A stretch of DNA of 54,981 nt from IMG/VR virus record IMGVR_UViG_2875697941_000003. One strand, written 5' to 3'. Source of the stretch: a virus (Duplodnaviria; Heunggongvirae; Uroviricota; Caudoviricetes). Positions 28,731-45,997 of the stretch are shown piece after piece. Position 1 is the stretch's first letter. Every line of letters starts with the position of its first letter. Made by a program: the position numbers and the translations under genes. The notes beneath the pieces are model-generated. The model was not told the DNA's origin, did not search any database, and worked only from the letters and a program-made list of their open reading frames with translations.

Positions 28731-30188
28731 TTAGGAGCGCCAAAAAAAACCTGAAAACAATATAATAACAGGATAAATTTCAAGGCGACCAAGAATCATA
28801 GCTATGCACATTAAACATTTTGCAATGTCATTAAGCACTCCGAATGACGATGCAGTAGCCCCAAAACCTAATCCCATATTATTAATACATGCAGCCACTG
28901 TTGCAAATGATGTAAGAAAATCATATCCCATACCATTTAACACCAGTATAAAAAACACCGTGAAGAGAGTATAAAGAAAAAAGAAACTCCATACAGACCT
29001 CATTACACGATCTGTAACTATCTTCCCTCCTACATTTACACTCAACAACGCTCTGGGATGAGAAAGCTGATTTATCTCATGTTTGCTTTGTTTGAAAAGT
29101 ATAAGAAATCGAAGTGACTTAATTCCACCACAAGTTGAACCTATACATCCCCCAAAGAAACTTGACAACAGCAAAAACACTATCGTGTGCGTGGGCCAAC
29201 TTGCATAATCCTGCGTAGCTAAACCATTATCAGTGAGCATGGAGCTGGCAAGAAAAAACGAATGAATAAAACTTCCATGCAAGTCATACATACCTATATG
29301 CCAGACCTGGAAAGAGGTAACAATGATCACCCCTAAGGCTATTAACAGAAAGAAACGAAGTTCAATATCTCTGATTAAAGGTTTTATCGTTTTCCTGCTA
29401 ATAACAATATACCAAAGAGTGAAGTTGAAAGCCGATAGCAGGGAAAAAGAACCAGCCACCAGCTCAACCAAATAGTTATTAAAATATCCGATACTCTCGC
29501 TATGAGTTGAGAAACCACCAAGCGAAACTGTGGAAATCCCGTGACAAATAGCATCAAACAAAGGCATTCCTGCAAGTCTATAACAGACAATACAAGCAAT
29601 ACCTAATAAAGAATAAGTTATCCACAGTGTCCGTGACGTATCGGCCAGGCGGGGAGTGAGTTTGTCATCCTTAAATGGCCCCGGCATTTCTGACTGATAA
29701 AGCTTTGCACCACCAATACCCAATAATGGCAATACAGCAACCGCCAGAACAATAACTCCTAAACCACCTATAAAATTTAACTGTGACCGATAGTACAAAT
29801 ATGCCCGAGGTAATGAACTAACATCATCAATTACAGTTGCTCCTGTTGTTGTTATTCCAGAAACCCCTTCAAACAGAGCATCAATGAACGTTAAATTAAG
29901 TTCTGAGTCAATCCATAAAGGGAATGCACTAATAACAGAAAACAAAATCCAAAACATTACAATTATAATAAACCCATCACGGGTACGTAATTGAATGCCA
30001 GATTTCTTAGTTGTATACCACGCTCCGCCACCAATGCAAAAAAATATAACGAAAGTTATAAAGAAAACGAACAGGCTTTTTTCTTTATAAAACAATGCTA
30101 CAACCATTGGTGGCAACATTGAAAGACTATAGAGCCAAACCAGGAACCCACACATATGAGTAACAACTCTTACATGAGATGTATTCAT
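28731..30188 (-). CDS. trkG: Trk-system K+ uptake protein TrkG (TrkH/TrkG family), prophage-borne
   Basis: Sequence MNTSHVRVVTHMCGFLVWLYSLSMLPP... recognised as K-12 Rac TrkG; multi-pass membrane protein. Confidence 0.9.
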   Translation of the reverse strand: MNTSHVRVVTHMCGFLVWLYSLSMLPPMVVALFYKEKSLFVFFITFVIFFCIGGGAWYTTKKSGIQLRTRDGFIIIVMFWILFSVISAFPLWIDSELNLTFIDALFEGVSGITTTGATVIDDVSSLPRAYLYYRSQLNFIGGLGVIVLAVAVLPLLGIGGAKLYQSEMPGPFKDDKLTPRLADTSRTLWITYSLLGIACIVCYRLAGMPLFDAICHGISTVSLGGFSTHSESIGYFNNYLVELVAGSFSLLSAFNFTLWYIVISRKTIKPLIRDIELRFFLLIALGVIIVTSFQVWHIGMYDLHGSFIHSFFLASSMLTDNGLATQDYASWPTHTIVFLLLSSFFGGCIGSTCGGIKSLRFLILFKQSKHEINQLSHPRALLSVNVGGKIVTDRVMRSVWSFFFLYTLFTVFFILVLNGMGYDFLTSFATVAACINNMGLGFGATASSFGVLNDIAKCLMCIAMILGRLEIYPVIILFSGFFWRS

Positions 30189-30325
30189 ATCTAAATATTC
30201 TTTCAATTATAACCACCTTGCTGCAATATTATGATTATACTGTATAAAATTTAACTCCTCTTAGATCTTACTTCACTGTTCCTTATGAAACAATCATCAA
30301 AATGAATCATATTGTAGTTAAGATT

Positions 30326-32546: not shown

Positions 32547-32942
32547 CTAACCTCGCATGTCAAAGCCAGATTTCTGAAAATCTCTGTAGACTTCCGGATT
32601 GTTGAAGGCCGGAAATTTGGCTTTATGAGCTGCGGACTTTATCGCTTCGCAATAGGCTTTATCACCGTTACTGGTAGATATTTTTAACGCCGTGCCATCC
32701 TGAGAGAATTCCATATGCAACCTGCATTTTTTCCCTTTCCAGTTATGCGGCTCATCAAGTTTGGCATTAATTGCAGCTCTGATTCCCCGCGCTTGCGCCC
32801 CCCATTCATCCTGATCATCCCAGCGTCCTGAACTGCAACTACCTGTAGCAGTAGTTTTGTGGCAATCTGAAGGGTGTAAAGGTGTGCATCCCGCAACAAA
32901 ACCGACCCAAAAAGTCAACATAACGATTTTCTTTAATCCCAC
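32547..32942 (-). CDS. Lipoprotein with TolA C-terminal domain (TolA-III)-like region, paralog 1
   Basis: Signal peptide plus lipobox VAGC; C-terminal region aligns with TolA domain III and with paralog 2 (conserved Cys pair, DG, F..D motif). Confidence 0.65.
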   Translation of the reverse strand: MGLKKIVMLTFWVGFVAGCTPLHPSDCHKTTATGSCSSGRWDDQDEWGAQARGIRAAINAKLDEPHNWKGKKCRLHMEFSQDGTALKISTSNGDKAYCEAIKSAAHKAKFPAFNNPEVYRDFQKSGFDMRG

Positions 32943-33092
32943 TTCTTGCTCCTCAATCCATTAAAATCTCAGCAATAGTAGTTGTTACGTCCGCCACTGG
33001 CTCAGAGCTGACTATCCGCTAAATTTAGCTCAGTGCCGTAGCTGTGTCAGAACAAACCTAAGCCGAAACCGTTTATTACAAAACAATAAATA

Positions 33093-33521
33093 TCAGGGTT
33101 TAAAATCCAGCACCCCATTTTGAAATACTTTATATACTTCCGGCGAAGGGGGGGCAGGTATATCAGCATTCTTTATCGCATTCATCGCTTCACGACATAA
33201 ATCGAGGTCTCCACTTTCTCTTTTAACCTCCAGTAGAAGGCCATTCGGGGCCATATGCATTCTCAGTGTACACTCTTTTCCTGAATACTTACTCGCATCC
33301 CCGAACTGTTTTTCGATGGCGCTCTTGATTTGATGGGCATACAGACGGATATCCTCACTAACATCAGAAGTACGTTCAGATGAACTCACATACTGTGTCT
33401 CTATTGCTTTATCGGAGTAATATGATGTACGGTCATGATAATTTGTCGATACAGCATCAGTGCACCCGATAATAATCCCACTAATAATCAACGTAAGAAT
33501 TGATGCGCTACGAAAACCCAT
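33093..33521 (-). CDS. Lipoprotein with TolA C-terminal domain (TolA-III)-like region, paralog 2
   Basis: Signal peptide plus lipobox IIGC; C-terminus QIKSAIEKQFGDASKYSGKECTLRMHMAPNGLLLEVK...PEVYKVFQNGVLDFKP closely resembles E. coli TolA C-terminus; own SD GAGGAA and TATATATAAT -10-like box upstream. Confidence 0.7.
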   Translation of the reverse strand: MGFRSASILTLIISGIIIGCTDAVSTNYHDRTSYYSDKAIETQYVSSSERTSDVSEDIRLYAHQIKSAIEKQFGDASKYSGKECTLRMHMAPNGLLLEVKRESGDLDLCREAMNAIKNADIPAPPSPEVYKVFQNGVLDFKP

Positions 33522-35105: not shown

Positions 35106-35392
35106 AAATGACCTTTCTTTCTCCAGATTTCTTGTGTGCGAAAAACCCCTTCAGCATGCATCAGGCGCAATTCTTCTTTGGTGTAATCGCTGGTTTTTAC
35201 CCGCCCGTCGATTAGATCGTGGCATGAGCTACAGGCTATCGCCGCCTGCATATCGTGTGGTTTTGTCGCTGTTCCGCACGTCCCCGCCAGCCTGTAATGC
35301 GCCAGCACAGAGGTTTCGGGATTGTGATTGCAGTAGCCAGGGATTCTGATCTGGCACATCTGGCCTTTAGCCGCTTTACGTAAATTCACCAT
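35102..35392 (-). CDS. Nin-region protein, YbcO-like (DUF1364, Cys-rich putative nuclease)
   Basis: Resembles DLP12 YbcO as I recall it (CQIRIPGYCNHNPETSVLAH...ACSSCHD). Confidence 0.65.
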   Translation of the reverse strand: MVNLRKAAKGQMCQIRIPGYCNHNPETSVLAHYRLAGTCGTATKPHDMQAAIACSSCHDLIDGRVKTSDYTKEELRLMHAEGVFRTQEIWRKKGHL

Positions 35393-35991
35393 TACGCAAA
35401 CTCCAGTAGTTGTGCGGCCACATTTTCAACTTCCTCCTGAGAGGAGAATTTACGAAACAGAATCCAGTTCCACAGCACATTCAGTACAGATTTATAAACC
35501 TGCTGAAACTCGACTTCGTCCATATTCGCAAAAGCGATGGATTTTGCCCGACGCCCACGGCTACCGTCCGGATAAATATGCTCGGTGTAAAATCCGGCCT
35601 GAATGGTTACCCACTCGCGGAAAGCCTCAAACGACTTTAGCAACGCCGTATCCCGGGTTCTACGAGTCGCAACGGTGTTAAGGTATTGCTCTGCGGCATC
35701 ACTCAGGGCTGGCGTGTGTTCCCGACCAACTGATTCGCACAGGTAATCAACGAAACCAGACAGCAGTTCTCGTTCGCGAGGCGTGATCGCCCCACCGACC
35801 GGAGTCCAGTAATCGAATCCCAGTTGCAGGAGTTTGAAAAAACGCTTGTGGAATGCGTAGTTACGCACACGCTTAAAGTCTGCGTGTATCCACTCACCTA
35901 TTTTGATTTGATGCAGAAAATCGCAACTCTCCGGCGTCGCCGGGAGAAGTAAACCAGAAGAAGTTTGTTTGACCAGTTGTATATGCGCCAT
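35392..35991 (-). CDS. Nin-region hypothetical protein (DUF1367-like)
   Basis: Position and size typical of lambdoid nin-region genes. Confidence 0.5.
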   Translation of the reverse strand: MAHIQLVKQTSSGLLLPATPESCDFLHQIKIGEWIHADFKRVRNYAFHKRFFKLLQLGFDYWTPVGGAITPRERELLSGFVDYLCESVGREHTPALSDAAEQYLNTVATRRTRDTALLKSFEAFREWVTIQAGFYTEHIYPDGSRGRRAKSIAFANMDEVEFQQVYKSVLNVLWNWILFRKFSSQEEVENVAAQLLEFA

Positions 35992-36271
35992 TTCTCAATC
36001 TCTCGATGGCGCAGCGCAGCAGATGCCAGTTGTTCAGGCTGACGAATAAAGTATAAATAAACTGGCTATGGTGTAAAGCCCCACATAGCATGAACAAACA
36101 CTACATATCAAATAGCTGGTACAAGGATAGAAATACGACATTTATTATTAAAAACGATTAGATAAATTACATTTTAATGTTATGCAAAAGTTCTTTTTTA
36201 TCATAACATTTCAATAAAAGCATTACAGATGCAATCATCCCGTCATCATCAATTATTTAAGGTGGTTAAAC

Positions 36272-36358
36272 ATGGAAAATAACAAGTTCGCACATCTCGC
36301 TCCTTTTTTATCCGTAATCCTTTTCGCTTGTTGTTTTATATGGGCATTATTTTTATAA
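36272..36358 (+). CDS. Small hydrophobic peptide (28 aa, MENNKFAHLAPFLSVILFACCFIWALFL); candidate small membrane protein or type I toxin
   Basis: Strong SD AAGGTGG 6 nt upstream of ATG; single predicted TM; sits in an AT-rich intergenic region. Confidence 0.3.
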   Translation: MENNKFAHLAPFLSVILFACCFIWALFL

Positions 36359-36804
36359 AGTAGCCACATGATAAGTTGCTGGAATCATATTTCCCACTCA
36401 AGTCATTAACATTTGATAAGATATATCTAAAAGGACGCCTTTACATTATTTATGTGTATATAATTTATTTATATACACAGTAAAGGTATCCTGGGAAAAT
36501 ATTTATCGTTAAAAAATACATCATAAATAATTAAGCTGAAATTTCAGAACACAACTAATACACACAATAAGGTTCAGTAACAATAATCTATGTGGACTAC
36601 ATCGAGATTTTTTGATTAAACTTTAATAACTTATTCCTAACACACAGAATGCATAAACTAAAAGTAAAACAAATAGTTATACGAAAAACAACCATATTTA
36701 TTATATCTTCTCCTCTAATCAACATATCAATTATGTGTTTCATAACAGCTTGACATAACCCTCAAAAACACGCATTTATAATGCATGTTTTTGATGAGGT
36801 GGTT

Positions 36805-37143
36805 ATGACACACAAGAGAATTCCTAAAGATTGGGTAATCAAACGCTCAACTCCGTTCTTCACAAAAGAGAACGTACCTTCAGCGTTATTAACACATCAT
36901 AATACAGCAGCAGGTGTTTTTGGGCAGTTGTGCGTAATGGAAGGCACTGTAACATATTATGGTTTTACTGATGAGAATGCTACTGAACCGGAGATAAAAG
37001 TAGTCATTAATGCTGGCGCTTTTGCAACAAGCCCACCACAATACTGGCACCGTGTTGAACTAAGCGATGATGCTCAGTTTAATATTAACTTTTGGGTCGC
37101 TCCAGACTTCTCGGGCGAAAAAGTCTATAGCACCAAAAAATAG
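36805..37143 (+). CDS. Hypothetical protein (~113 aa), first gene of the cargo island
   Basis: ORF with GAGGTGG SD before internal ATG at 36805; no phage-like features. Confidence 0.5.
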   Translation: MTHKRIPKDWVIKRSTPFFTKENVPSALLTHHNTAAGVFGQLCVMEGTVTYYGFTDENATEPEIKVVINAGAFATSPPQYWHRVELSDDAQFNINFWVAPDFSGEKVYSTKK

Positions 37144-37866
37144 ATGATCATATTAAAAATGCTTTAACAGTCAGACCCGGCAGGGCTATCCCCGACGGGT
37201 CTCATTTTTGTAAATATATTGGTTCTACATTGACAGGAGACTTCAACCATAAGAAGTAATCTGAATACTTGAGCAATAAATTTACTTAAGATTAATGAGC
37301 GCACCTTGCCGGACAAAGATAAACCAAGGTAACACCTTTTTTCTAGCCAGTATGTAATCAATCAGAAAGCCGCTCCATAAGAACAACAGCAAGACAATAA
37401 ATTGCCATTACAGCCGCAATAGCTAGCGCACATTTGAGAACCAGCACGACAACCTCCTGTATTGGACGTACACCAGTTCTGATAAATATGAGGCTGTCTC
37501 ATCATTGATTCAATATAACTATTGGGTATAGTTTCTGTGATTTTGTTCTGTAGAAATGGAACACAACAACCAGTCACCACCAGCACTTCTTTAAATACGC
37601 CAAGTCCGACGCAAGCTAACCTTCTAGTCCGCTTTGAGCGAGGAGCGGACCAAACCCGGCCAACTGACTCTTAAAGGGGCCGCAGGAATTTTTCGTCTGA
37701 ACTTTCGAAGCTCCTCTCCCTGAAGACAGAAAACTTCTGTGTGCTGTGGGAATATTGAATCTTTGCCTTAGATATAAATAATTTTATCCCGCCTGAAGTT
37801 TACATTATTTTATTTATCTGTTTTTCTAAATCAGACTGCACTCCTTACTTAAATCAGGAGCCAGTC

Positions 37867-39066
37867 ATGCCATTTGTTATTTATGTGTTTACTATCAGTG
37901 CCTTTGCGCTCGGACTCGCGGAATTTGTCCCCATTGGGCTGACAGACGTTATGGCTCAGGGGTTGTGTGTGGGTGTGGAGCAGACCGGGGCAGCGGTTAC
38001 AACCTATGCACTGGGGGCAACGTTCGCGGCACCCGTACTGTCTGCGCTGACAGCAAGCTGGAGCCGGAAAAATGTAATGCTTACAACTGCCGTTGTGTTT
38101 ACTGCCGGTAGTCTGGCGGCCGCGTTTGCAGCCACATTACCTCAGCTCCTGTTAGCGCGGTTCATTGCTGGTCTGGGACACGGCCTGTTTCTGGCTGCGG
38201 CATCCAGTACCGCAGCTCGTCTTGCTGGACCGGGTAAAGCAGGCAGAGCGGTGGCTGTGGTATTTGGTGGCTTTACTCTGGCGATGGCAATCGGCGTACC
38301 GCTGAGTACATGGTTGGGGGGGGTGGTCTCATGGCGTCCAGTTCTCGGCGCTATTGCCGCTTTTGGCGCGTTCGGATTCCTTGGACTGTTGTTCGGTATG
38401 AAAGATCCCGTACGCAGCGTGCCCGGTGAACATAGTGACTCAGCAATGCAGAATATCGGCATGCTGTTTAACCGTAAGTTGCTGGCCGGCGCGCTGGTTA
38501 CGGTGCTGGCGTATGCAGGCTCGTTTACGGATTACACCTTTATCGCACCTATTCTGACGCAGGTGACAGGGGTTACCGGAGCAACGGTGAGTCTGTTTAT
38601 GCTGGTTTACGGTATTACAGCTGCGGTAGGTAATATTCTTGGTGGGAAACTTACCGACAGCATGGGGGTTAATCGTGCCAATATACTCATCATTAGCGGC
38701 ATTGTTGTTGTCGTGCTTGGTATGTGGCTGCTGTCATCCTCACCGGTGAGCATGGGCATTCTGGTTGCGCTGCTGGGTATGGTGACATTTGCCGCAGTGC
38801 CGGCACTGCAGGCCCGTCTGATTGGTGTCGCTGAGCAACATGCTCCTCATGCGCATGGTGTTGCTGCCGGCCTGAATATTGCGGGCTTCAACTCAGGTAT
38901 AGCGCTGGGATCAGTACTGGGCAGCATTACTATAAGCCACGCCGGTATCGTGTATACCGGTATCAGCGGTGCGATTGTTTCTCTGCTCGGCCTGCTGTTG
39001 CTGCTTGCACAAATCCGTCGCAGCCACAGTCGTAAATTTCAACAGGTTAAAATCGTAGGCCAGTAA
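37867..39066 (+). CDS. MFS transporter (12-TM), 399 aa
   Basis: Hydrophobic multi-pass sequence with MFS-like architecture. Confidence 0.8.
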   Translation: MPFVIYVFTISAFALGLAEFVPIGLTDVMAQGLCVGVEQTGAAVTTYALGATFAAPVLSALTASWSRKNVMLTTAVVFTAGSLAAAFAATLPQLLLARFIAGLGHGLFLAAASSTAARLAGPGKAGRAVAVVFGGFTLAMAIGVPLSTWLGGVVSWRPVLGAIAAFGAFGFLGLLFGMKDPVRSVPGEHSDSAMQNIGMLFNRKLLAGALVTVLAYAGSFTDYTFIAPILTQVTGVTGATVSLFMLVYGITAAVGNILGGKLTDSMGVNRANILIISGIVVVVLGMWLLSSSPVSMGILVALLGMVTFAAVPALQARLIGVAEQHAPHAHGVAAGLNIAGFNSGIALGSVLGSITISHAGIVYTGISGAIVSLLGLLLLLAQIRRSHSRKFQQVKIVGQ

Positions 39067-39077
39067 AGGGAGGTTAT

Positions 39078-39770
39078 ATGCTTACCCGTGAAAATATGCT
39101 TAATGGCACATTTGTCAGGGTGCATGAAGCGCTGCTCCCGGCGAATATGCTCTGGGACGCTGAAAAAATACGCGCATCAATGAACTCTACTCTGGAGGAG
39201 CGCCCGACGGGTGCTCCTGTCTGGATATTTGCCTACGGGTCATTGATGTGGAATCCCGTGCTGGCGATTGAAGAAATGCAACGGGCCCGTCTGAAAGGAT
39301 GGCAGCGCAGTTTCTGCATTCGTTTGATATCCGGACGAGCGACTCCTGATGTCCCCGGCAGGATGTTATCGCTCGACGAAGGTGGAATTACCGAAGGTAT
39401 TGCGTTCAGACTGCCGGAATCGACTCTTATTAATGAGCTGGAAATTGTCTGGACGCGCGAGATGATAACCGGTCTTTACCGTCCGGTCTGGGCAGACGTT
39501 TCGCTAGGAAACGGTAAGGAAATTCAGGCGCTGGCTTTCGTATCAGACAGACTGCATCCGCATTATGAACAGGACAATCTTACAGCGACCGTAGCGTTGA
39601 GCATCGCATCTGCCCGTGGAGACATTGGCACGAATGCAGATTATGTATGGAAACTGCAGGCCACTCTGGGTGCGTTGGGAATACGGGATGATTACGTGAG
39701 TGAACTGGCCCTTGCTCTGCATGAGGCTCCCTGTAACGATAAACTTCATCAGCGAGGCGCTTCACTATGA
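39078..39770 (+). CDS. ChaC-like gamma-glutamyl cyclotransferase family protein
   Basis: Conserved AYGSLMWNP motif and overall similarity to E. coli ChaC, but clearly a distinct paralog. Confidence 0.75.
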   Translation: MLTRENMLNGTFVRVHEALLPANMLWDAEKIRASMNSTLEERPTGAPVWIFAYGSLMWNPVLAIEEMQRARLKGWQRSFCIRLISGRATPDVPGRMLSLDEGGITEGIAFRLPESTLINELEIVWTREMITGLYRPVWADVSLGNGKEIQALAFVSDRLHPHYEQDNLTATVALSIASARGDIGTNADYVWKLQATLGALGIRDDYVSELALALHEAPCNDKLHQRGASL

Positions 39771-40648
39771 GCCATCTGAGCCATCTGCGAACGTTTCTTG
39801 AGGCCTATCGCTCTGGCTCCTTTTCAAAGGCGGCAGAACTACTGGGCATCACTCAGCCCGCGGCGTCACAGCATATCCAGTCTCTTGAGACTCTGGTTGG
39901 TAAGCGTCTGTTTATCAGGCAGGCCAGAGGCGTGACGGCAACCGAAGCTGCGGATGAGCTTGCCCGCTCAGTTTCACCCTTCATTGATGGTCTGGAAGAA
40001 AAGCTGTCCTCTTTCCGGTCAGGCTCTGTACGTGGGGGAACAATTAATCTGGCAGGACCGCCAGATTTTATTCATTCCCGGCTTGGGACAGTAATGGCTC
40101 CACTAATGAAGGAGGGGTATCGCCTACGCTTTCATACCGGCAATAAGCAACGTATTTATTCCCTTTTGCATGACGGGAGCGCCGATCTCGCTGTTACCGC
40201 ATCTATGCCTGATGACCGTCTGTACGGCTATGCACATCTACTGACTGAACGCATGCTCCTTGTTCATGCTCCCGCCATGTCAGAGATCATCGGATCAGAA
40301 CCTGGTGCTGAAACGCTTGCCTCATTACCGCTGATTGCTTATGACGAAGAGTTGCCACTGATTAGAGCGCTCTGGGCCTCCATTTTTCAGAGAGCCCCTG
40401 AGATGCAGGCTACATTCACCATTCCGGATTTACGTATTATCCGCGACTTGGTCTGTGACGGCCACGGGTGGACAGTGCTGCCGGATTATCACTGTGACAA
40501 TGACCTGAAAAGTGGTCGCCTGATTTCAGTGACACCTGCAGACCTCGCTCCGACTAATCATCTTTATCTGGTCTGGAACAAAAGGACGGCTAATAACAGC
40601 CGAACCGCCTATGTTCGGGATTACATTCTTAAAACGTTTCCGCGTTGA
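39767..40648 (+). CDS. LysR-family transcriptional regulator
   Basis: N-terminal HTH (HLRTFLEAYRSGSFSKAAELLGITQPAASQHIQSLE) plus LysR substrate-binding region; 293 aa. Confidence 0.85.
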   Translation: MSHLSHLRTFLEAYRSGSFSKAAELLGITQPAASQHIQSLETLVGKRLFIRQARGVTATEAADELARSVSPFIDGLEEKLSSFRSGSVRGGTINLAGPPDFIHSRLGTVMAPLMKEGYRLRFHTGNKQRIYSLLHDGSADLAVTASMPDDRLYGYAHLLTERMLLVHAPAMSEIIGSEPGAETLASLPLIAYDEELPLIRALWASIFQRAPEMQATFTIPDLRIIRDLVCDGHGWTVLPDYHCDNDLKSGRLISVTPADLAPTNHLYLVWNKRTANNSRTAYVRDYILKTFPR

Positions 40649-40778
40649 TGTTTGAAACGGATGATTGGCGATGCGTATCATAAGTTACGTATGTCCGCTT
40701 CTGGCACAAAGCAGACGCCCACTCTCACGCGAATGCTTTGCCCTTGACTTGCCAACAACCGTATCGCTTGCTCCGCAA

Positions 40779-42071
40779 CTATGGTTTTTTATTAGAATCT
40801 TCGCCACTAAATAAATTATAATAAATTGATTTTATTAGATATCTGTCAGAATCTATATGGTCAGCACGAGTAGCATGCTCTAATGTTTCAAATGCTAGGG
40901 TTTGTGCGGCTTCAGCAAAAATTCCAGGCCAACCCTTACTCAGCATCGACAGTCCTTTAAGTACCCTTATCTGAATTTCCCTCATACTGGCACCATCGCG
41001 CGCAACAGGTGAGAAAAAGTCTTCAAGTAGATCGTTATTCTGAAGTGGTGCAACATGTACAGAAGGATATTTCACTTCTATTTCATCAGATTTATTCTGC
41101 GCGTAAGCGGAAAGTATACGTACACCTCTGCCAATGACATCAATGGCGGTTCCAGGATCGTTCACTGCGGGGGAAAGGGCTCGGCAGGCTATTTCGGCCA
41201 TGACGCTAAGACAAAATCGGGGGTCCTGAGCAAATGAACGTACATCCGAGACAATAATCGTCTCAAGTAAATCGGTGCTGATTGATGACTCCTGGCCCTG
41301 ACTCAGGTACAAAACTGGCGTGGACGGATGTATGAAACTGCCCGGCTGCGCCACGAGGTATACATGACGGGGATCATTGGTCAGCAGCTTGCTGAGTTTC
41401 ACCATATCAACATATTCAACATAGCCAATCTTTTTCGGATAAACTGCAACCGTTCCTTTCGGCTGTTCATTGTTCTCAAGCCATGGATATCCGCCGAGAC
41501 AGGGATTTCTTGCTCTCGCAATAAATGTTTCGATGGCCGCCTGTTCTACTTTTGCCGTTGTCTCACCAACCCTCCCCAGAGAGGTCAAATGCTGTATCCA
41601 GCGAAGCAATGTGATGAGGATTAAGGCAATGACAACCAGTGTTACAATGAATAAAATGACTCTCCCCCTTTCTCCATAAGCTCCCATATTGAGGGCAATA
41701 ATCCCTACCAGACTGAAGAGAAAAGAACCGATGAAGGTGGCCAGTACATTTTGTGTGGTGACGTCTTCAACAACTAAACGAGTAGCTCTGGGAGTCACAT
41801 TAGTAGTGGCTGAACCGTAGGCTGTGACCATGATGCTCAGCGAAAATGTGGTCACTGCCAGCATACTCGATGCCAGTATGTTCAGAATGTTATCGACTGC
41901 TTCCGCACCAACCTTCACGGAAACCGACTCAGGTATCATTGATTTAAAAAGAATTGATAAAAGGGCCGTTATTATTGCGACAATTGCGAATAACGTTGCC
42001 CTGAACCATAGTTTTTTAAATGTCTGCTTCAGCATCCATTTCCAGCGTGAAATCATTCTGCATTCCCTCAT
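40779..42071 (-). CDS. DUF2254-type membrane protein (430 aa)
   Basis: N-terminal multi-TM region followed by soluble domain; family call from memory only. Confidence 0.5.
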   Translation of the reverse strand: MRECRMISRWKWMLKQTFKKLWFRATLFAIVAIITALLSILFKSMIPESVSVKVGAEAVDNILNILASSMLAVTTFSLSIMVTAYGSATTNVTPRATRLVVEDVTTQNVLATFIGSFLFSLVGIIALNMGAYGERGRVILFIVTLVVIALILITLLRWIQHLTSLGRVGETTAKVEQAAIETFIARARNPCLGGYPWLENNEQPKGTVAVYPKKIGYVEYVDMVKLSKLLTNDPRHVYLVAQPGSFIHPSTPVLYLSQGQESSISTDLLETIIVSDVRSFAQDPRFCLSVMAEIACRALSPAVNDPGTAIDVIGRGVRILSAYAQNKSDEIEVKYPSVHVAPLQNNDLLEDFFSPVARDGASMREIQIRVLKGLSMLSKGWPGIFAEAAQTLAFETLEHATRADHIDSDRYLIKSIYYNLFSGEDSNKKP

Positions 42072-42119
42072 ATTGCAGCCGGGATAAATAAATGCCGCCT
42101 CTGTGGCGGCATGTTGCTG

Positions 42120-44123
42120 TTAACGAACCAGATGCAGGAAGTGCAGGTGTTTTTCGTACTGGTCCAGTATGTCATTAATCAGCTGTTCCTGATTCCAGCC
42201 CATTACATCATAATTTTGGCCGCCCTCTTTGAGATAGACTTCAGCGCGATAATATCGATGTTGTTCACTCTGCTGCTCATCATTATCCAGCGCAGCGAGC
42301 GCGAAGGTCGGTGAGTTATACCCGCGAAGCCTCACTTCATATATATAATTCAGCTCGTTGCCCAAATCGACTTCAAGGCGAATACGATCCTCGGCGGCGT
42401 CACTGATGTGGCTTATCGTTCCCTGCTTGTTAAGTTCCTCCTGAACCAGCGTCATGGCGGGTTGGATAATGTCGTCCATAAAACGTTTCACAAGAGAGCG
42501 CTTCGGCAAATACGCGATATTGCGTAACCTTCTCTGCCAGGGAATTGGGTTACGTGCAGCCGTAGGAGCAATAGTCGCCATGCTAAGGCTTTCACGCTTG
42601 GTCAAATCCCGACGCAGGGCTTTTAACAGTCCGTATATGGATATTAATAAGATAACTGAGAAGGGCAATGCACTCGCTATCGTTACGGTTTGCAACGCAC
42701 TCAGCCCCCCTGCGATCAGCAGGGCAATAGCAACAACGCCCATGAGCGATGCCCAGAAAATTCGCTGCCAGACGGGCGTGTTTGCCACCCCACCTGATGC
42801 CAGAGTATCCACAACCATTGCCCCCGAATCAGCAGACGTTACAAAGAAGACGATGACCATCGCCATTGCAATGAATGACAGCACGGAAGAGAACGGGAAA
42901 TGCTCCAGGAAATTAAACAGGGCAAGCGCAACATCCTGCTGAACGGTATTGGCGAGGTCAGTGGCGCCCTGGTTCATGATGAGATAGATGGCGCTGTTTC
43001 CAAACACCGTCATCCACATGAGCGTAAAGCCGGCGGGAACAAACAACACGCCAGTCACGAACTCACGAATTGTCCTGCCGCGGGAAACGCGTGCAATGAA
43101 CATACCTACAAACGGCGACCATGAAAGCCACCATCCCCAGTATAATAATGTCCAGCCCCCCAGCCAGTTGCTCGACTTGGGTTCATACGCGTAAAGGTTG
43201 AACGTTTTACTCACCAGTTCCGACAGATAACCACCCGTATTTTCCACAAATGACTTCAGCAGAAGCACAGTGGGACCCAGGCACAAGACCAGCGCCAGGA
43301 GCAACACCGCCAGGCCCAGATTAAGCTCAGACAGGATGCGTATTCCCTTGTCCAGGCCGGACACCACCGAAATCGTCGCTAACCCCGTGATGACCACGAT
43401 CAAAATGACCTGTACCGTTTCATTGATGGGCACGCCGAAAAGATGGTTCAAACCGGCATTCACCTGCAATACACCGTAACCCAGCGATGTTGCAACGCCA
43501 AAGACAGTGCCTATCACGGCGAAGATATCAACCGCGTGGCCTATAGGCCCGTAAATGCGATCGCCGATAATGGGATAGAGCGCAGAACGCAGCGTTAAAG
43601 GCAGACCGTGACGGTAACTGAAAAAGGCCAGAATCAGCGCCACGATGGCATAAATTGCCCATGCGTGCAGACCCCAGTGGAAGAACGTCAGGCGCATGGC
43701 TTCCTTCGCTGCCGCAACGGTCTCTGGAGTGCCGACAGGTGGCGAAAGATAATGCATCACAGGTTCGGCAACGCCAAAGAACATCAGGCCGATCCCCATC
43801 CCTGCCGAAAAAAGCATCGCGAACCAGGAGTGGTAGCTGAAATCAGGCTGCGCATGGTCTGGGCCCAGCTTTATATCACCGTAACGTGAGAGTCCAAGGA
43901 ACGTGACGCTCAGTAAAATCAGGGCCACAGCAAGTATGTAGAACCAGCTGGCATTCGTGAAGATTTGTTGCTGAAGTAGTTTAAAATTTTTGTCGGCGAC
44001 ATCCGGGAATACGGCGGCAAAGGCGACAAGAAGGAAAATTAGCAAAGCAGATGTAAAGAATACCGCTTTGTTAATCTGGCTTGTAGACTTCTTTGGGGTT
44101 GTATCATTTTCACTCATAATCAT
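42120..44123 (-). CDS. BCCT-family transporter, BetT-like (choline/betaine/carnitine), 667 aa
   Basis: Shares blocks with E. coli BetT (WSPFVG.F.ARVSRGRTIR.FV; ILDQYE.HL.F.HL) but is a paralog. Confidence 0.85.
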   Translation of the reverse strand: MIMSENDTTPKKSTSQINKAVFFTSALLIFLLVAFAAVFPDVADKNFKLLQQQIFTNASWFYILAVALILLSVTFLGLSRYGDIKLGPDHAQPDFSYHSWFAMLFSAGMGIGLMFFGVAEPVMHYLSPPVGTPETVAAAKEAMRLTFFHWGLHAWAIYAIVALILAFFSYRHGLPLTLRSALYPIIGDRIYGPIGHAVDIFAVIGTVFGVATSLGYGVLQVNAGLNHLFGVPINETVQVILIVVITGLATISVVSGLDKGIRILSELNLGLAVLLLALVLCLGPTVLLLKSFVENTGGYLSELVSKTFNLYAYEPKSSNWLGGWTLLYWGWWLSWSPFVGMFIARVSRGRTIREFVTGVLFVPAGFTLMWMTVFGNSAIYLIMNQGATDLANTVQQDVALALFNFLEHFPFSSVLSFIAMAMVIVFFVTSADSGAMVVDTLASGGVANTPVWQRIFWASLMGVVAIALLIAGGLSALQTVTIASALPFSVILLISIYGLLKALRRDLTKRESLSMATIAPTAARNPIPWQRRLRNIAYLPKRSLVKRFMDDIIQPAMTLVQEELNKQGTISHISDAAEDRIRLEVDLGNELNYIYEVRLRGYNSPTFALAALDNDEQQSEQHRYYRAEVYLKEGGQNYDVMGWNQEQLINDILDQYEKHLHFLHLVR

Positions 44124-44457
44124 TTATTCCATTAATTAAATCCGCACTGGATAGAAGGTACTACCTCTCACAGAGTAGCAAAGTTCAACTGGCTATGCGG
44201 GGTTAATCGGAATGCATGGTGGAATGAGTGCCGATACAAATCATCCTATATTCTAAGGAGTTTTAAGTTACTCAGCCTGCCAATTACTGGGGCATTTAAT
44301 TTGTATGATCTGTATCAAAGCTGGGATATAAGTTAAGTGAAGTATATTAGGCACGAATTACCAGCGTCTGCTCTTGGCACAAAGCGGACAACCACGCTAG
44401 CTCTACCCTGTGCCACAAAATGTCAATTTGCATCTGAACTAATGCACTTTAATCTCG

Positions 44458-44880
44458 TCACTTCAATAAATACCGAACATCCCCCTGATAAAACGACAAT
44501 ATGCGCTGCATAACTTCGCTCTTCCGGCACTCGCGACAGATTATGTTTAGGCGACTGTCGTAGCGACGTATTTCTCCGTCAGGTAATGACCAGATAAGGT
44601 CCGGATCAACCACAACCGGTTTCTTCAGCTTTGCCCTCGATAATTTTTTGCGGGCATTTTGCCAGTCTTTACGAGCCTGTTCAGACGGGAATAACCCGTA
44701 GCCAGAATTGTATACATCGCCACTGGCAACCAGCTCTCTGGCCAGAACGCTCATCAGATATCTTGTTGCCCCAGTTTTAGCTTCCAGTTGTCGTAACGTC
44801 TCGCGCCCACTCTGGCGTACGAGTTCAAGAACCTGCCCTTTAATTTTTTCCCGCTCTTCTTGTGTAAAAACTTTTGCCAC
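44458..44880 (-). CDS. Hypothetical early-region protein (140 aa)
   Basis: ORF directly downstream of the replication gene. Confidence 0.5.
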   Translation of the reverse strand: MAKVFTQEEREKIKGQVLELVRQSGRETLRQLEAKTGATRYLMSVLARELVASGDVYNSGYGLFPSEQARKDWQNARKKLSRAKLKKPVVVDPDLIWSLPDGEIRRYDSRLNIICRECRKSEVMQRILSFYQGDVRYLLK

Positions 44881-44920
44881 AAGCCCTCCTGAAAATTACC
44901 TCATGACCAGAAATTAACAC

Positions 44921-45997
44921 TTACCCCCTGAAGCCCGGCGGAATTTCGTTATCCGGTTCAGAAATATGATTCACACAACGTTGGTTGTTCGTGCCGCTTA
45001 CCGGGAGCAACCAGGGGTTCTCAAAATTCCGGTCCGGTCCAAAAAACGTCGTCGCTCGCTGAACAAATTCCGTTCCCGTTTTCCCGGTAGCCGCCAAGTA
45101 TCTTGCGTAACGCCTCACGCCATCCAGCATGGCCTCTGGTGGCACCCCCTCGCGTAATCTGGCCTTCCAGGCACTGAAAGCGGATTTCTTCGGGTTTGCC
45201 CCAGCACGCAACGGGTACTCCCGCCAGACCTGTTCGAACACATCCGGATAATCCACTCGTCCCACAGACTGCCCGGTGTTTTCCGGGACTACCCGATCGG
45301 CTTCCCGCTGAATGGCGGAATCGGCTTCGGGCTGCTGCAGTTGGTGTGATTGCTCCGGCCTTGCGGTCATCACCTGCTGCACAGCGCCCGAATCGGCTTT
45401 CAGCGCATACGCTGAATCGGCTTCCGGTGTCGTGCCTGCTGGCTGACCAAGATTGACGGTCTGAACATCCCCTGCCTGGTTCGTGGCGTTTTTTACGCCA
45501 TGGACCATAGTGTTTTGATCTTCTTGATCTGTATCTTTATCTGTATCTTTATCTGTCGTGACTCGTCGTGACATATGCGTGACATTTCGTGACGCGCCGT
45601 GACAATCGCCATTTTGTTCCCGCTTTCTTTCCCTCTCTCGCTGCGCCCTCTTGCGCTCTGCAGGAGATTTTGCGGTTTGCGAAATATTGCCGTTGTCCTC
45701 TTTAAGCACCTGGCGTTTTTCCCATCCAGTGATTAAATCACCATCAAGTACCCGCCCCTGCATCGTCTGCAAAATTGAATCAATTACCTCTTCTGTCACG
45801 TCGAGCGCACTTGCCAAATCTTCTGTCGTGACCTCAATGTGACCTCGCGTGACATTTCGTGACGCGCTCACCAGGAGGTGGATATACACTGCCATCACTG
45901 TTGCAATTGGCTGCCCTGACACCCTGGCAATTGTTCGCCACTTAGGGTCATTTGGCATGTCATGCCATAATCTGAGCCAGGCGTTAGCCATACTCAC
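44921..45997 (-). CDS. Putative replication initiation protein (O-like), with iteron repeats inside the ORF
   Basis: Position after Cro-like/YdaT-like genes; embedded CGTGAC iterons. Confidence 0.55.
   Translation of the reverse strand: MSMANAWLRLWHDMPNDPKWRTIARVSGQPIATVMAVYIHLLVSASRNVTRGHIEVTTEDLASALDVTEEVIDSILQTMQGRVLDGDLITGWEKRQVLKEDNGNISQTAKSPAERKRAQRERERKREQNGDCHGASRNVTHMSRRVTTDKDTDKDTDQEDQNTMVHGVKNATNQAGDVQTVNLGQPAGTTPEADSAYALKADSGAVQQVMTARPEQSHQLQQPEADSAIQREADRVVPENTGQSVGRVDYPDVFEQVWREYPLRAGANPKKSAFSAWKARLREGVPPEAMLDGVRRYARYLAATGKTGTEFVQRATTFFGPDRNFENPWLLPVSGTNNQRCVNHISEPDNEIPPGFRG
45552..45603. repeat. Iteron cluster A: five CGTGAC repeats at 10-11 bp spacing (45557, 45567, 45578, 45588, 45598)
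   Basis: Direct count in sequence; spacing is not a multiple of 3, so it is DNA-level periodicity. Confidence 0.6.
45795..45863. repeat. Iteron cluster B: CGTGAC/TGTGAC repeats at 45827, 45838, 45848, 45858 plus an inverted GTCACG at 45795
   Basis: Direct count; shares TCTGTCGTGAC and GACATTTCGTGACGCGC blocks with cluster A. Confidence 0.6.

Follow-up and report, generated by a model that had tools for sequence, protein, structure and literature searches.

The 54,981-nucleotide DNA of the IMG/VR virus record IMGVR_UViG_2875697941_000003, referred to below as the window, represents a Rac-like prophage at ttcA with the phage genes on the minus strand. We propose, with a probability of about 0.6, that positions 37627-44389 of this window form a cassette slot of the lambdoid prophage, in which two independently acquired cassettes are stacked and at which cargo is exchanged through a conserved 24-bp site. 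The site, with the consensus GTCYGCTYY-T[C/G]GC[T/A]C-RRAGCRGAC, has an asymmetric 6-bp centre between inverted arms of 9 bp each, and its three copies, starting at 37627 (S1), 40693 (S2) and 44366 (S3), delimit a cassette for an MFS transporter, a ChaC protein and a LysR regulator (cassette 1) and a cassette for a DUF2254 membrane protein and a BCCT-family transporter (cassette 2) (Table 1). With a matrix built from the site family, S1, S2 and S3 gave scores of 38-40, and no score of 14 or higher was obtained in 20 shuffles of the window. S1 and S3 together make up a 37-nt inverted pair, and the two flanks of cassette 2, S2 and S3, are direct sites of the TGGCAC class.

Comparison with related Rac-like prophages, suggested by an earlier sequence-only reading of this DNA, defined the insertion boundaries by means of three of them, 042, TW01221 and Escherichia coli 10035210-2. 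Strain 10035210-2 carries the same prophage with DUF1971, two unrelated genes and then the DUF2254 gene and the BCCT transporter gene (betU, see below); its sequence is homologous to the window up to 37650, where S1 ends, and again from 40691, at S2, and an extra site is located between the two unrelated genes. The 042 prophage has hokD and queH at the same position, and homology resumes at 44367, where an own copy of the site stands beside queH. NJS001 has hokD and hypothetical genes there, and TW01221 has hokD followed by the insertion sequence (IS) IS1. In TW01221, 459 bp including hokD lie between the same two breakpoints as the DUF1971 module of the window, and backbone homology returns at 37343-37823, though hokD is present there instead of DUF1971. 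In the TW01221 record (NZ_CP074725, 5749-6446) an IS1A copy is located exactly at the start of cassette 1 and the sequence corresponding to 37824-44518 of the window is absent, including S3 and up to the 3' part of the DUF977 gene, as if IS1 had mediated the loss of both cassettes.

The sequence-only reading had taken 36000-44450 as a single island of about 7.5 kb carrying accessory non-phage cargo and flanked by AT-rich spacers. The six genes that it named were all found, contiguous and at the places given, with Pfam thresholds passed, and the accessory, non-phage nature of the cargo, at a variable position between the replication and nin-like modules, was supported; the block is absent from most related prophages (042, NJS001 and TW01221 differ). 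The limits of the block had to be redrawn: non-backbone DNA starts at 36360, the segment 37343-37650 is backbone, and the right boundary is at 44366-44389. The AT-rich spacers are real (36000-36800 has a GC content of 0.30 and 44100-44450 one of 0.40, the value over the whole window being 0.478), but it is the three 24-bp sites, and not the spacers, that form the boundaries. Judged from these sequence comparisons, the region is not one island, and is instead made of three modules that were acquired independently and are separated by backbone DNA: the two cassettes and a DUF1971 module, the latter being a separate replacement of the hokD locus without 24-bp sites.

An ordinary moron or island acquired in one step, as implied by the sequence-only reading, would be a single block of foreign chromosomal DNA that an Enterobacter- or Klebsiella-like donor supplied through illegitimate recombination or aberrant excision. 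The segment 37754-40651 shows 84-87% DNA identity to the chromosomes of Enterobacter sp. BIGb0383 and Pantoea rwandensis, in which the same three genes are arranged in the same order (protein identity of 96, 89 and 91%), and the GC content of the cargo (0.48-0.52) is unlike that of the AT-rich spacers, both as expected for such a capture. The donor-like chromosomes, however, carry the MFS-ChaC-LysR trio only, with neither an adjoining DUF2254-betU pair nor any sites; no 24-bp site was detected downstream of LysR in the Enterobacter, Pantoea and Klebsiella chromosomes. Moreover, plasmids carry DUF2254-betU as a separate unit at 99.9% identity, both of its ends lying inside S2 and S3, the sister prophage of 10035210-2 carries other genes in place of cassette 1 together with the same cassette 2, and TW01221 has hokD and not DUF1971, yet keeps the start of cassette 1. 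Since the separate distributions of the parts imply separate histories, capture of one block in one step is very unlikely.

The arrangement is neither universal nor a misjoin. E. coli EC0430 is 100% identical over 35500-45000, and its record annotates recET, kilR, sieB, a ydaT-like gene, DUF977, DUF1367, DUF1364, DUF1133, lysis genes, trkG and intR around the region. When at least 80% of 35500-45000 was required to be contiguous in a complete genome, 280 of 5,426 complete E. coli genomes were found to contain the full arrangement uninterrupted, and 297 the inner 6.5 kb; in a Shigella flexneri chromosome it recurs, with 97.4% identity across 15 kb. That non-contiguous DNA was misjoined in assembly, one of two outcomes that the sequence-only reading had named as fatal to itself, is thus refuted by an identical 9.5-kb arrangement in 280 complete genomes from many sources and projects, and in S. 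flexneri as well; the other such outcome, universal conservation as a phage function, does not agree with these counts either. The K-12 Rac prophage was rightly said to have no equivalent, but the only reason is that ydaW is directly followed by rzpR there, the whole slot being deleted together with the nin-like genes and the Q-like gene.

Table 1. Features of the cassette slot and its surroundings (positions in the window)
Feature	Position	Strand	Description
S1, TCGCTC class	37627-37650	-	GTCCGCTCC-TCGCTC-AAAGCGGAC on the minus strand; left slot boundary; matrix score 40.2
Cassette 1	37651-40692	+	MFS_1 37867-39066, ChaC 39078-39770, LysR 39767-40648 (Pfam)
S2, TGGCAC class	40693-40716	+	GTCCGCTTC-TGGCAC-AAAGCAGAC; junction of the two cassettes
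Cassette 2	40717-44365	-	DUF2254 membrane protein 40779-42071, BCCT transporter (BetU by sequence) 42120-44123 (Pfam)
S3, TGGCAC class	44366-44389	+	GTCTGCTCT-TGGCAC-AAAGCGGAC; right slot boundary
DUF1971 module	36360-37342	+	gene 36781-37143 (RefSeq start 36805); replaces the hokD/sok locus; Pfam DUF1971, 2.6e-26; GC content 0.344; no bounding 24-bp sites
DUF1367 gene	35392-35991	-	backbone, head of the nin-like block; from the open reading frame list and the RefSeq annotation of the identical strain; common to the 042, TW01221 and NJS001 prophages
AT-rich backbone intergenic DNA	35992-36359	.	GC content 0.33; homology to TW01221 (97.8%) and 042 (85.5%) up to 36359
Backbone segment with a cysteine-rich small open reading frame (37362-37586)	37343-37626	-	98.8% identical in TW01221
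DUF977 gene	44458-44880	-	backbone, replication side of the slot
Replisome-organiser-like gene	44921-45997	-	beyond DUF977, same flank

The transporter of cassette 2 had been called BetT-like, a label that follows from the NCBI model, which names this protein BetT (752 bits against the NCBIfam BetT subfamily, with a cut-off of 695; Pfam BCCT domain at 7e-199, residues 21-506). On the basis of sequence, however, it should be regarded as BetU and not BetT. An IncHI1 plasmid of Salmonella Typhi carries the unit IS1-DUF2254-BCCT-IS1, known as Tn6062, and the DUF2254 and BCCT proteins of the window are 98.4% and 97.9% identical to the Tn6062 pair, with identical gene order and spacing. The two genes of Tn6062 confer growth in 0.8 M NaCl, and SPAP0106 was named betU (Holt 2011, PMC3139670). 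The link to osmoprotection made by the sequence-only reading therefore stands, but since BetU has been described as betaine-specific and BetT as choline-specific (PMC4411257), choline uptake in a betT mutant, one part of the choline/betaine test that it proposed, would be the wrong assay. As judged from the Tn6062 allele, BetU of the window would import glycine betaine and proline betaine and, together with DUF2254, would give higher salt tolerance. One primer of Holt 2011 matches exactly at 40789-40808; the second, IS1056-04, has no match within 3 mismatches, and by eye it fits 44170-44191 with 5 mismatches, where the amplicon would be 3,403 bp versus the reported 3,405 bp.

The sequence 40691-44390 was found with 99.8-99.9% identity on IncY, IncFIA and IncHI1A plasmids of E. 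coli, Klebsiella and Enterobacter, and in each case the homology begins within S2 and terminates within S3, so that differences are confined to the left arm of S2 and to the sequence past S3. More diverged copies of DUF2254-betU are present on a considerable part of the 1,267 Klebsiella plasmids that matched (about 93% identity) and at a separate IS-flanked chromosomal locus (about 94% identity; 1,557 E. coli records fall in the 90-95% band). Arrival of betU by transposition, either as the IS1 composite Tn6062 or from the IS-flanked chromosomal locus, could be considered in view of the IS1 copies on both sides of the pair in S. Typhi IncHI1 plasmids, the IS3 copies that flank the betU locus on the E24377A chromosome, and the activity of IS1 in this very slot in TW01221. 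Against this, no IS remnants were found at the junctions and no IS1 sequence anywhere in the window, the shared DNA ends at 24-bp sites and not at IS ends, and the unit in the prophage is longer than Tn6062 at both ends. The IS-bounded copies are truncated inside the unit (at 40783-44188 and 40697-44226 in window positions) and so look secondary, and a degenerate S2 is kept at the E24377A locus. We consider it very unlikely that transposition brought the pair into this prophage.

Three plasmids, pPO125 (IncY), one of Klebsiella pneumoniae (IncFIA) and one of Enterobacter cloacae (IncHI1A), carry the same 11-kb segment between IS26 and ISKpn19-qnrS1, with the order site, 269-aa protein, small integrase, 476-aa protein, site, DUF2254-betU, site and relB. 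This segment appears to be a phage-type cassette array captured into a resistance region.

In order to characterize the site family beyond the window, viral contigs were scanned for the site pattern, which gave at least 120 loci and, among the matches listed, 133 unique site contexts; a scan of metagenomes for the composite junction alone (see below) gave at least another 120 loci (0.9 Mb). Across these more than 240 phage and metagenome loci, the homology between genomes breaks exactly at the site, with variable cargo on one side and conserved backbone on the other. When the 3-kb segments around 163 sites were all aligned with one another, 1,323 of 1,608 internal alignment starts fell within -10 to +9 of the site start. 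Two centre classes were recognized: among the matches listed, positions 10 and 13 are C and T at 74 sites or G and A at 59 of the 133 unique sites, never mixed, with rare point variants of the centre such as TCACTC. Facing sites form inverted heterotypic pairs, one TCGCTC and one TGGCAC, in 196 of 205 cases, and on its cargo side the site is usually preceded by A or AA. By the position matrix, the viral loci include at least 79 slots with at least 60 distinct cargos among the matches listed; the median cassette length is 1.3 kb (interquartile range 0.9-2.1 kb). Where cassettes are stacked, the joint is a 66-bp composite of a TCGCTC site, a gap of 15-18 bp and an inverted TGGCAC site (about 30 distinct examples). 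The gap lengths peak at 18 (98 cases), 15 (34) and 16 (28), a distribution that is in part imposed, because the metagenome pattern fixed the gap at 15-18 bp. Arrays reach up to about five junctions per 10 kb, some of them on contigs of 0.5-1.3 Mb.

The cargo of other slots is mostly anti-phage defence genes, with TIR, HEPN, reverse transcriptase, SMODS with ThiF-like E1, RelA/SpoT, FRG, and NUDIX plus HAD domains, and with the PADLOC candidate defence families PDC-S15, PDC-S39 and Hp1/Hp2. The slot of the window is thus a hotspot of the defence type that holds transport and metabolic cassettes. One viral contig (IMGVR_UViG_3300031419_000378, 1429-10238) has site-bounded cassettes beside two tyrosine-recombinase-like open reading frames (ORFs) of 335 and 707 aa, and a site directly before an apparent arsenic-resistance operon (recognised by eye, from how each ORF begins), which suggests that the sites border resistance cargo as well.

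The position at which two sequences switch was deduced from sites that share one side only. Of 15 pairs with the same cargo end in different backbones, 12 agree throughout positions 0-14 of the site and only 2 throughout positions 15-23; conversely, of 236 pairs with the same backbone and different cargo, 224 agree throughout positions 15-23 and only 18 throughout positions 0-8. The variant centre TCACTC follows its own cargo into two different backbones. The left arm and the centre thus travel with the cargo and the right arm stays with the backbone, placing the exchange at or just after the centre. The sites around cassette 2 behave likewise. The right arm of S2 is constant together with DUF2254 and its left arm varies with the left neighbour (four contexts, cluster R4); the left arm of S3 is always found with betU and its right arm is of the recipient type, AAAGCGGAC in the Rac-type and AGAGCGGAC in the P2-type backbone.

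A mechanism in agreement with these patterns would be as follows. The slot would be bounded by one site of each centre form in inverted orientation, and strand exchange would take place at a fixed point between centre and right arm, so that left arm and centre move and the right arm remains with the recipient. A circular cassette would carry the 66-bp composite, and one crossover with a homotypic resident site would generate the arrays observed. In the simplest account, the MFS-ChaC-LysR cassette would at that time have terminated in a TGGCAC site, at which one crossover brought in a circular DUF2254-betU unit. The probable catalyst would be a tyrosine recombinase of about 200 aa, which consists of the catalytic domain only, is carried in some cassettes and would act in trans on those that, like the two of the window, lack one.

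The candidate enzyme came from the plasmids, on which a 202-aa protein with the tyrosine-recombinase catalytic domain only, of which WP_001752951 is an example, is encoded in the cassette beside betU (Pfam Phage_integrase PF00589, 2.1e-17, residues 37-186; weak matches to XerD and XerA in PDB; 17 bits against the NCBIfam integron-integrase models, whose cut-offs are 265-435). For copies of at least 86% identity at 14 loci, a site was detected near the gene in 13 and on each side of it in 8. Wherever sites were seen, the polarity was TGGCAC, gene, TCGCTC, in Rac-type, another lambdoid and P2 Z/fun slots with different neighbours, and the same polarity surrounds the recombinase gene in a non-phage island of CFT073. 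The gene is present in 848 of 5,426 complete E. coli genomes and, at 93% identity or more, in 10 of the 120 composite-junction metagenome loci among the matches listed, and a degenerate site is located 34-57 bp upstream of its start codon. By this association we infer that the protein of about 200 aa is a candidate for the enzyme acting on the 24-bp sites.

For more distant integrase homologues, co-variation with sites gave no more than hints, in the form of palindromes of other sequence. A group with 63% identity has a TTCCGTT...AACGGAA palindrome upstream. Three viral contigs (L202, L203 and L206) with integrase homologues of 60-62% identity carry two to three copies per locus of a 28-nt palindrome, GTCCCACC-N12-GGTGGGAC, spaced by about 200 bp and at a distance of 3.5-5 kb from the homologue, which may be an analogous site family in other hosts.

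Several points weigh against a cassette slot served by such a recombinase. The window itself encodes no homologue of the enzyme (tblastn within the window), its only tyrosine recombinase being intR at the prophage end, and any recombinase action here would therefore have to be in trans. Within about 7 kb of the sites there is no recombinase gene common to all backbone types, the integrase is linked to the sites by association and the gene could be cargo instead, and homologues of 55-66% identity are mostly without such sites nearby. No recognisable TCGCTC partner or 18-bp spacer was found beside S2, and the betU unit thus departs from the full form of other stacked cassettes. A search of viral and metagenome contigs gave no match to the junction predicted for a betU circle or tandem (GTCTGCTCT-TGGCAC-AAAGCAGAC plus flanks). 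Few clearly independent transfers carry informative markers (about 10 cargo ends in two or more backbones), and the fixed switch point could in part reflect the longest run of identity shared by two diverged sites. The functions of the cassette 1 genes, finally, are assigned at the family level.

The lack of a common recombinase gene near the sites and of the circle junction would also be expected if the 24-bp palindromes were primarily regulatory or insulating protein-binding sites at module borders and the cargo were swapped by homologous recombination through RecA, RecET or Red, with no dedicated recombinase. The phage of the window encodes RecE and RecT, and for RecET and Red a homology of a few tens of bases is sufficient. 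Arm position 3 varies independently of position 20 (CG 70, CA 37, TG 18, TA 8), as would fit protein half-sites rather than a selected hairpin. Homologous exchange, however, does not account for the finding that P2-like, lambdoid, plasmid and chromosomal loci, which share nothing else around the sites, have the same 24 bp, the same two centre classes and the same inverted heterotypic layout, nor for a switch point that is the same in all informative cases. The 66-bp composite with its fixed spacer of 15-18 bp is predicted by single-crossover integration of a circle and not by double homologous exchange, and the small tyrosine recombinase is enriched at arrays. Homologous recombination between protein-binding sites is thus rather unlikely, and of the explanations that compete with site-based cassette exchange we take it most seriously.

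A structural role of the sites in RNA or DNA was examined separately. No known RNA family was recognized at the sites, as an Rfam search of 35800-44700 with E values up to 5 gave only a chance miRNA match; folding was no better than that of shuffled sequences (z of -2.0 to +1.2), no T-run was found and the paired arm positions showed no covariation. These results make a selected RNA or DNA hairpin or a terminator unlikely.

The same site family is present at the Z/fun locus of phage P2. In P2, fun(Z) is located between GTCCGCTTT-TGGCAC-AGAGTGGAC beside gene G and a degenerate TCGCTC site beside FI (scores of 31.6 and 17.5 with the same matrix); in a P2-like prophage (L152) the slot lies between the G-like (tail-fibre assembly) and FI-like (tail sheath) genes, and in another (L086) the betU end abuts the G-side site, after which IS2 interrupts. 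Identical cassettes were found in both Rac-type and P2-type slots. The repeats are already known in the P2 context: Nilsson, Karlsson and Haggard-Ljungquist reportedly treated Z/fun as a variable locus of P2 in 2004 (Mol Biol Evol 21:1). According to a review citing Nilsson 2004, fun is flanked by inverted repeats enabling site-specific recombination (PMC8987985), and Z/fun is a recognised defence hotspot (Vassallo 2022; Egorov and Atkinson 2024). In the literature searched, which did not include the 2004 P2 paper itself, we found no description of the sites in lambdoid phages, the two centre classes, the composite junction or the responsible enzyme. The slot of the window and Z/fun have in common the inverted heterotypic layout, variable cargo between conserved phage genes and breakpoints at the repeats. 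The former, however, lies between DUF977 and the hokD/DUF1367 side of a Rac-like lambdoid prophage and not between the tail genes G and FI, two cassettes are stacked in it, and its cargo serves transport and metabolism and not phage defence.

We tentatively extend the model, at somewhat less than even odds, to a single integrase-in-cassette system that would be shared by otherwise unrelated enterobacterial temperate phages (P2-like and several lambdoid), plasmids and chromosomal islands. Cassettes with two different 24-bp ends, one of the TCGCTC and one of the TGGCAC class, would be excised as circles carrying the 66-bp composite and inserted at homotypic sites by the recombinase of about 200 aa, which 'autonomous' cassettes encode and which would mobilise 'non-autonomous' cassettes in trans. 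Such a system could fill and shuffle hotspots such as Z/fun and could have moved betU between plasmids and the Rac prophage.

This organization resembles that of integrons in the stacked, promoter-independent cassettes, the imperfect-palindrome ends, the composite junction with its attC-like layout, the arrays explained by single crossover of a circle, and a Xer-like tyrosine recombinase as the candidate enzyme. In contrast to integrons, there is no intI-attI-Pc platform, the candidate recombinase of about 200 aa lies inside cassettes, the cassettes have two different ends and the slots are bounded by inverted sites; the GTTRRRY core and the R''/L''/L'/R' boxes of attC are missing, and it is the sequence of the site that is strongly conserved, whereas attC conserves structure. 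The cargo of sedentary chromosomal integrons is rich in defence genes (bioRxiv 10.1101/2024.07.02.601686), as is the cargo at the 24-bp sites. The pdif modules of Acinetobacter, in which XerC/XerD sites flank resistance genes, are likewise small modules with inverted sites of the form arm-6 bp-arm, spread over many unrelated replicons and devoid of an own recombinase gene, but the arms here are 9 bp and not 11 bp, two centre classes exist and the hosts are phages of Enterobacteriaceae. To our knowledge, the 24-bp site has no resemblance to dif, cer or psi. With trkG of Rac and other lambdoid morons (the concept of Juhala 2000) the slot shares a transporter gene of benefit to the host in a Rac-type prophage; trkG, however, has no 24-bp sites and behaves like a fixed Rac cargo rather than an exchangeable cassette. 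In the window this classic cargo gene is at 28731-30206 on the minus strand, with a GC content of about 0.39 and no 24-bp sites around it in the whole-window scan. Ly reportedly paired trkG and betU in 2004 as laterally acquired osmoregulatory genes, BetU being that of uropathogenic E. coli.

The three genes of cassette 1 are apparently one operon, which probably serves the transport and cleavage of a gamma-glutamyl compound, as far as the family names go. The ChaC protein, by family a gamma-glutamylcyclotransferase-like enzyme, has the Pfam ChaC domain (2.6e-35) and no equivalog match in NCBIfam, and for the MFS and LysR proteins the nearest NCBIfam models, the Cmx/CmrA-type efflux proteins and the ArgP/LysG-type regulators, are all far below the cut-off. 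The proposed connection with glutathione metabolism comes from the ChaC family name only and was not upheld. DNA of about 94% identity to the DUF1971 module was found in the phages vB_EcoS-666R9, 673R7 and 613R10.

Among the backbone features near the slot, homologues of DUF977 were found at 27, and homologues of the small ORF at 37362-37586 (minus strand) at 25, of the 120 site-bearing viral loci among the matches listed. This ORF, adjoining S1, is rich in cysteines in its C-terminal 46 residues (...NWCTSNTGGCRAGSQMCASYCGCNGNLLSCCCSYGAAF) and gave no match in Pfam or NCBIfam. In the AT-rich backbone adjoining the hokD locus of the sister prophages, a 28-aa hydrophobic ORF (MENNKFAHLAPFLSVILFACCFIWALFL) at 36263-36349 on the plus strand looks like a small membrane peptide or type I toxin. 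A cluster of CGTGAC repeats resembling origin iterons lies at 45550-45870, within the replisome-organiser-like gene. A promoter scan gave 14 matches versus 13.2 expected. A fourth, degenerate site, GTCCGCCACTGGCTCAGAGCTGAC, was detected at 32989-33012 on the plus strand, with the mixed centre TGGCTC and a score of 22 (shuffles again gave none of 14 or higher); it is flanked by the two minus-strand, TolA-like accessory genes (32547-32942 and 33093-33521) that lie downstream of the Q-like gene, and may be a relic of another cassette slot.

The cargo of the slot is in itself ordinary. What deserves attention is the site system, of which the literature gives only a partial description and for which a concrete, testable mechanism can be proposed. 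Phage hotspots rich in defence genes are well documented, and as to the exchange of their cargo Rousset 2022 speculated about cos ends. The 24-bp site, the fixed switch point, the two centre classes, which look incompatible, the composite junction and the candidate minimal recombinase make this exchange a testable question. The repeats of P2 Z/fun are not peculiar to P2, and are a common currency of P2-like phages, lambdoid phages, resistance plasmids and genomic islands. Because the sites mark the borders of cassettes precisely, they allow the mining of unknown defence genes, as indicated by the 60 or more distinct cargos from at least 120 viral loci. Site-based exchange would also explain the 99.9% identity of betU between the Rac prophage and the IncY, IncF and IncHI plasmids that carry qnrS1 as well, betU being an osmotolerance determinant implicated in the success of the S. 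Typhi H58 plasmids.

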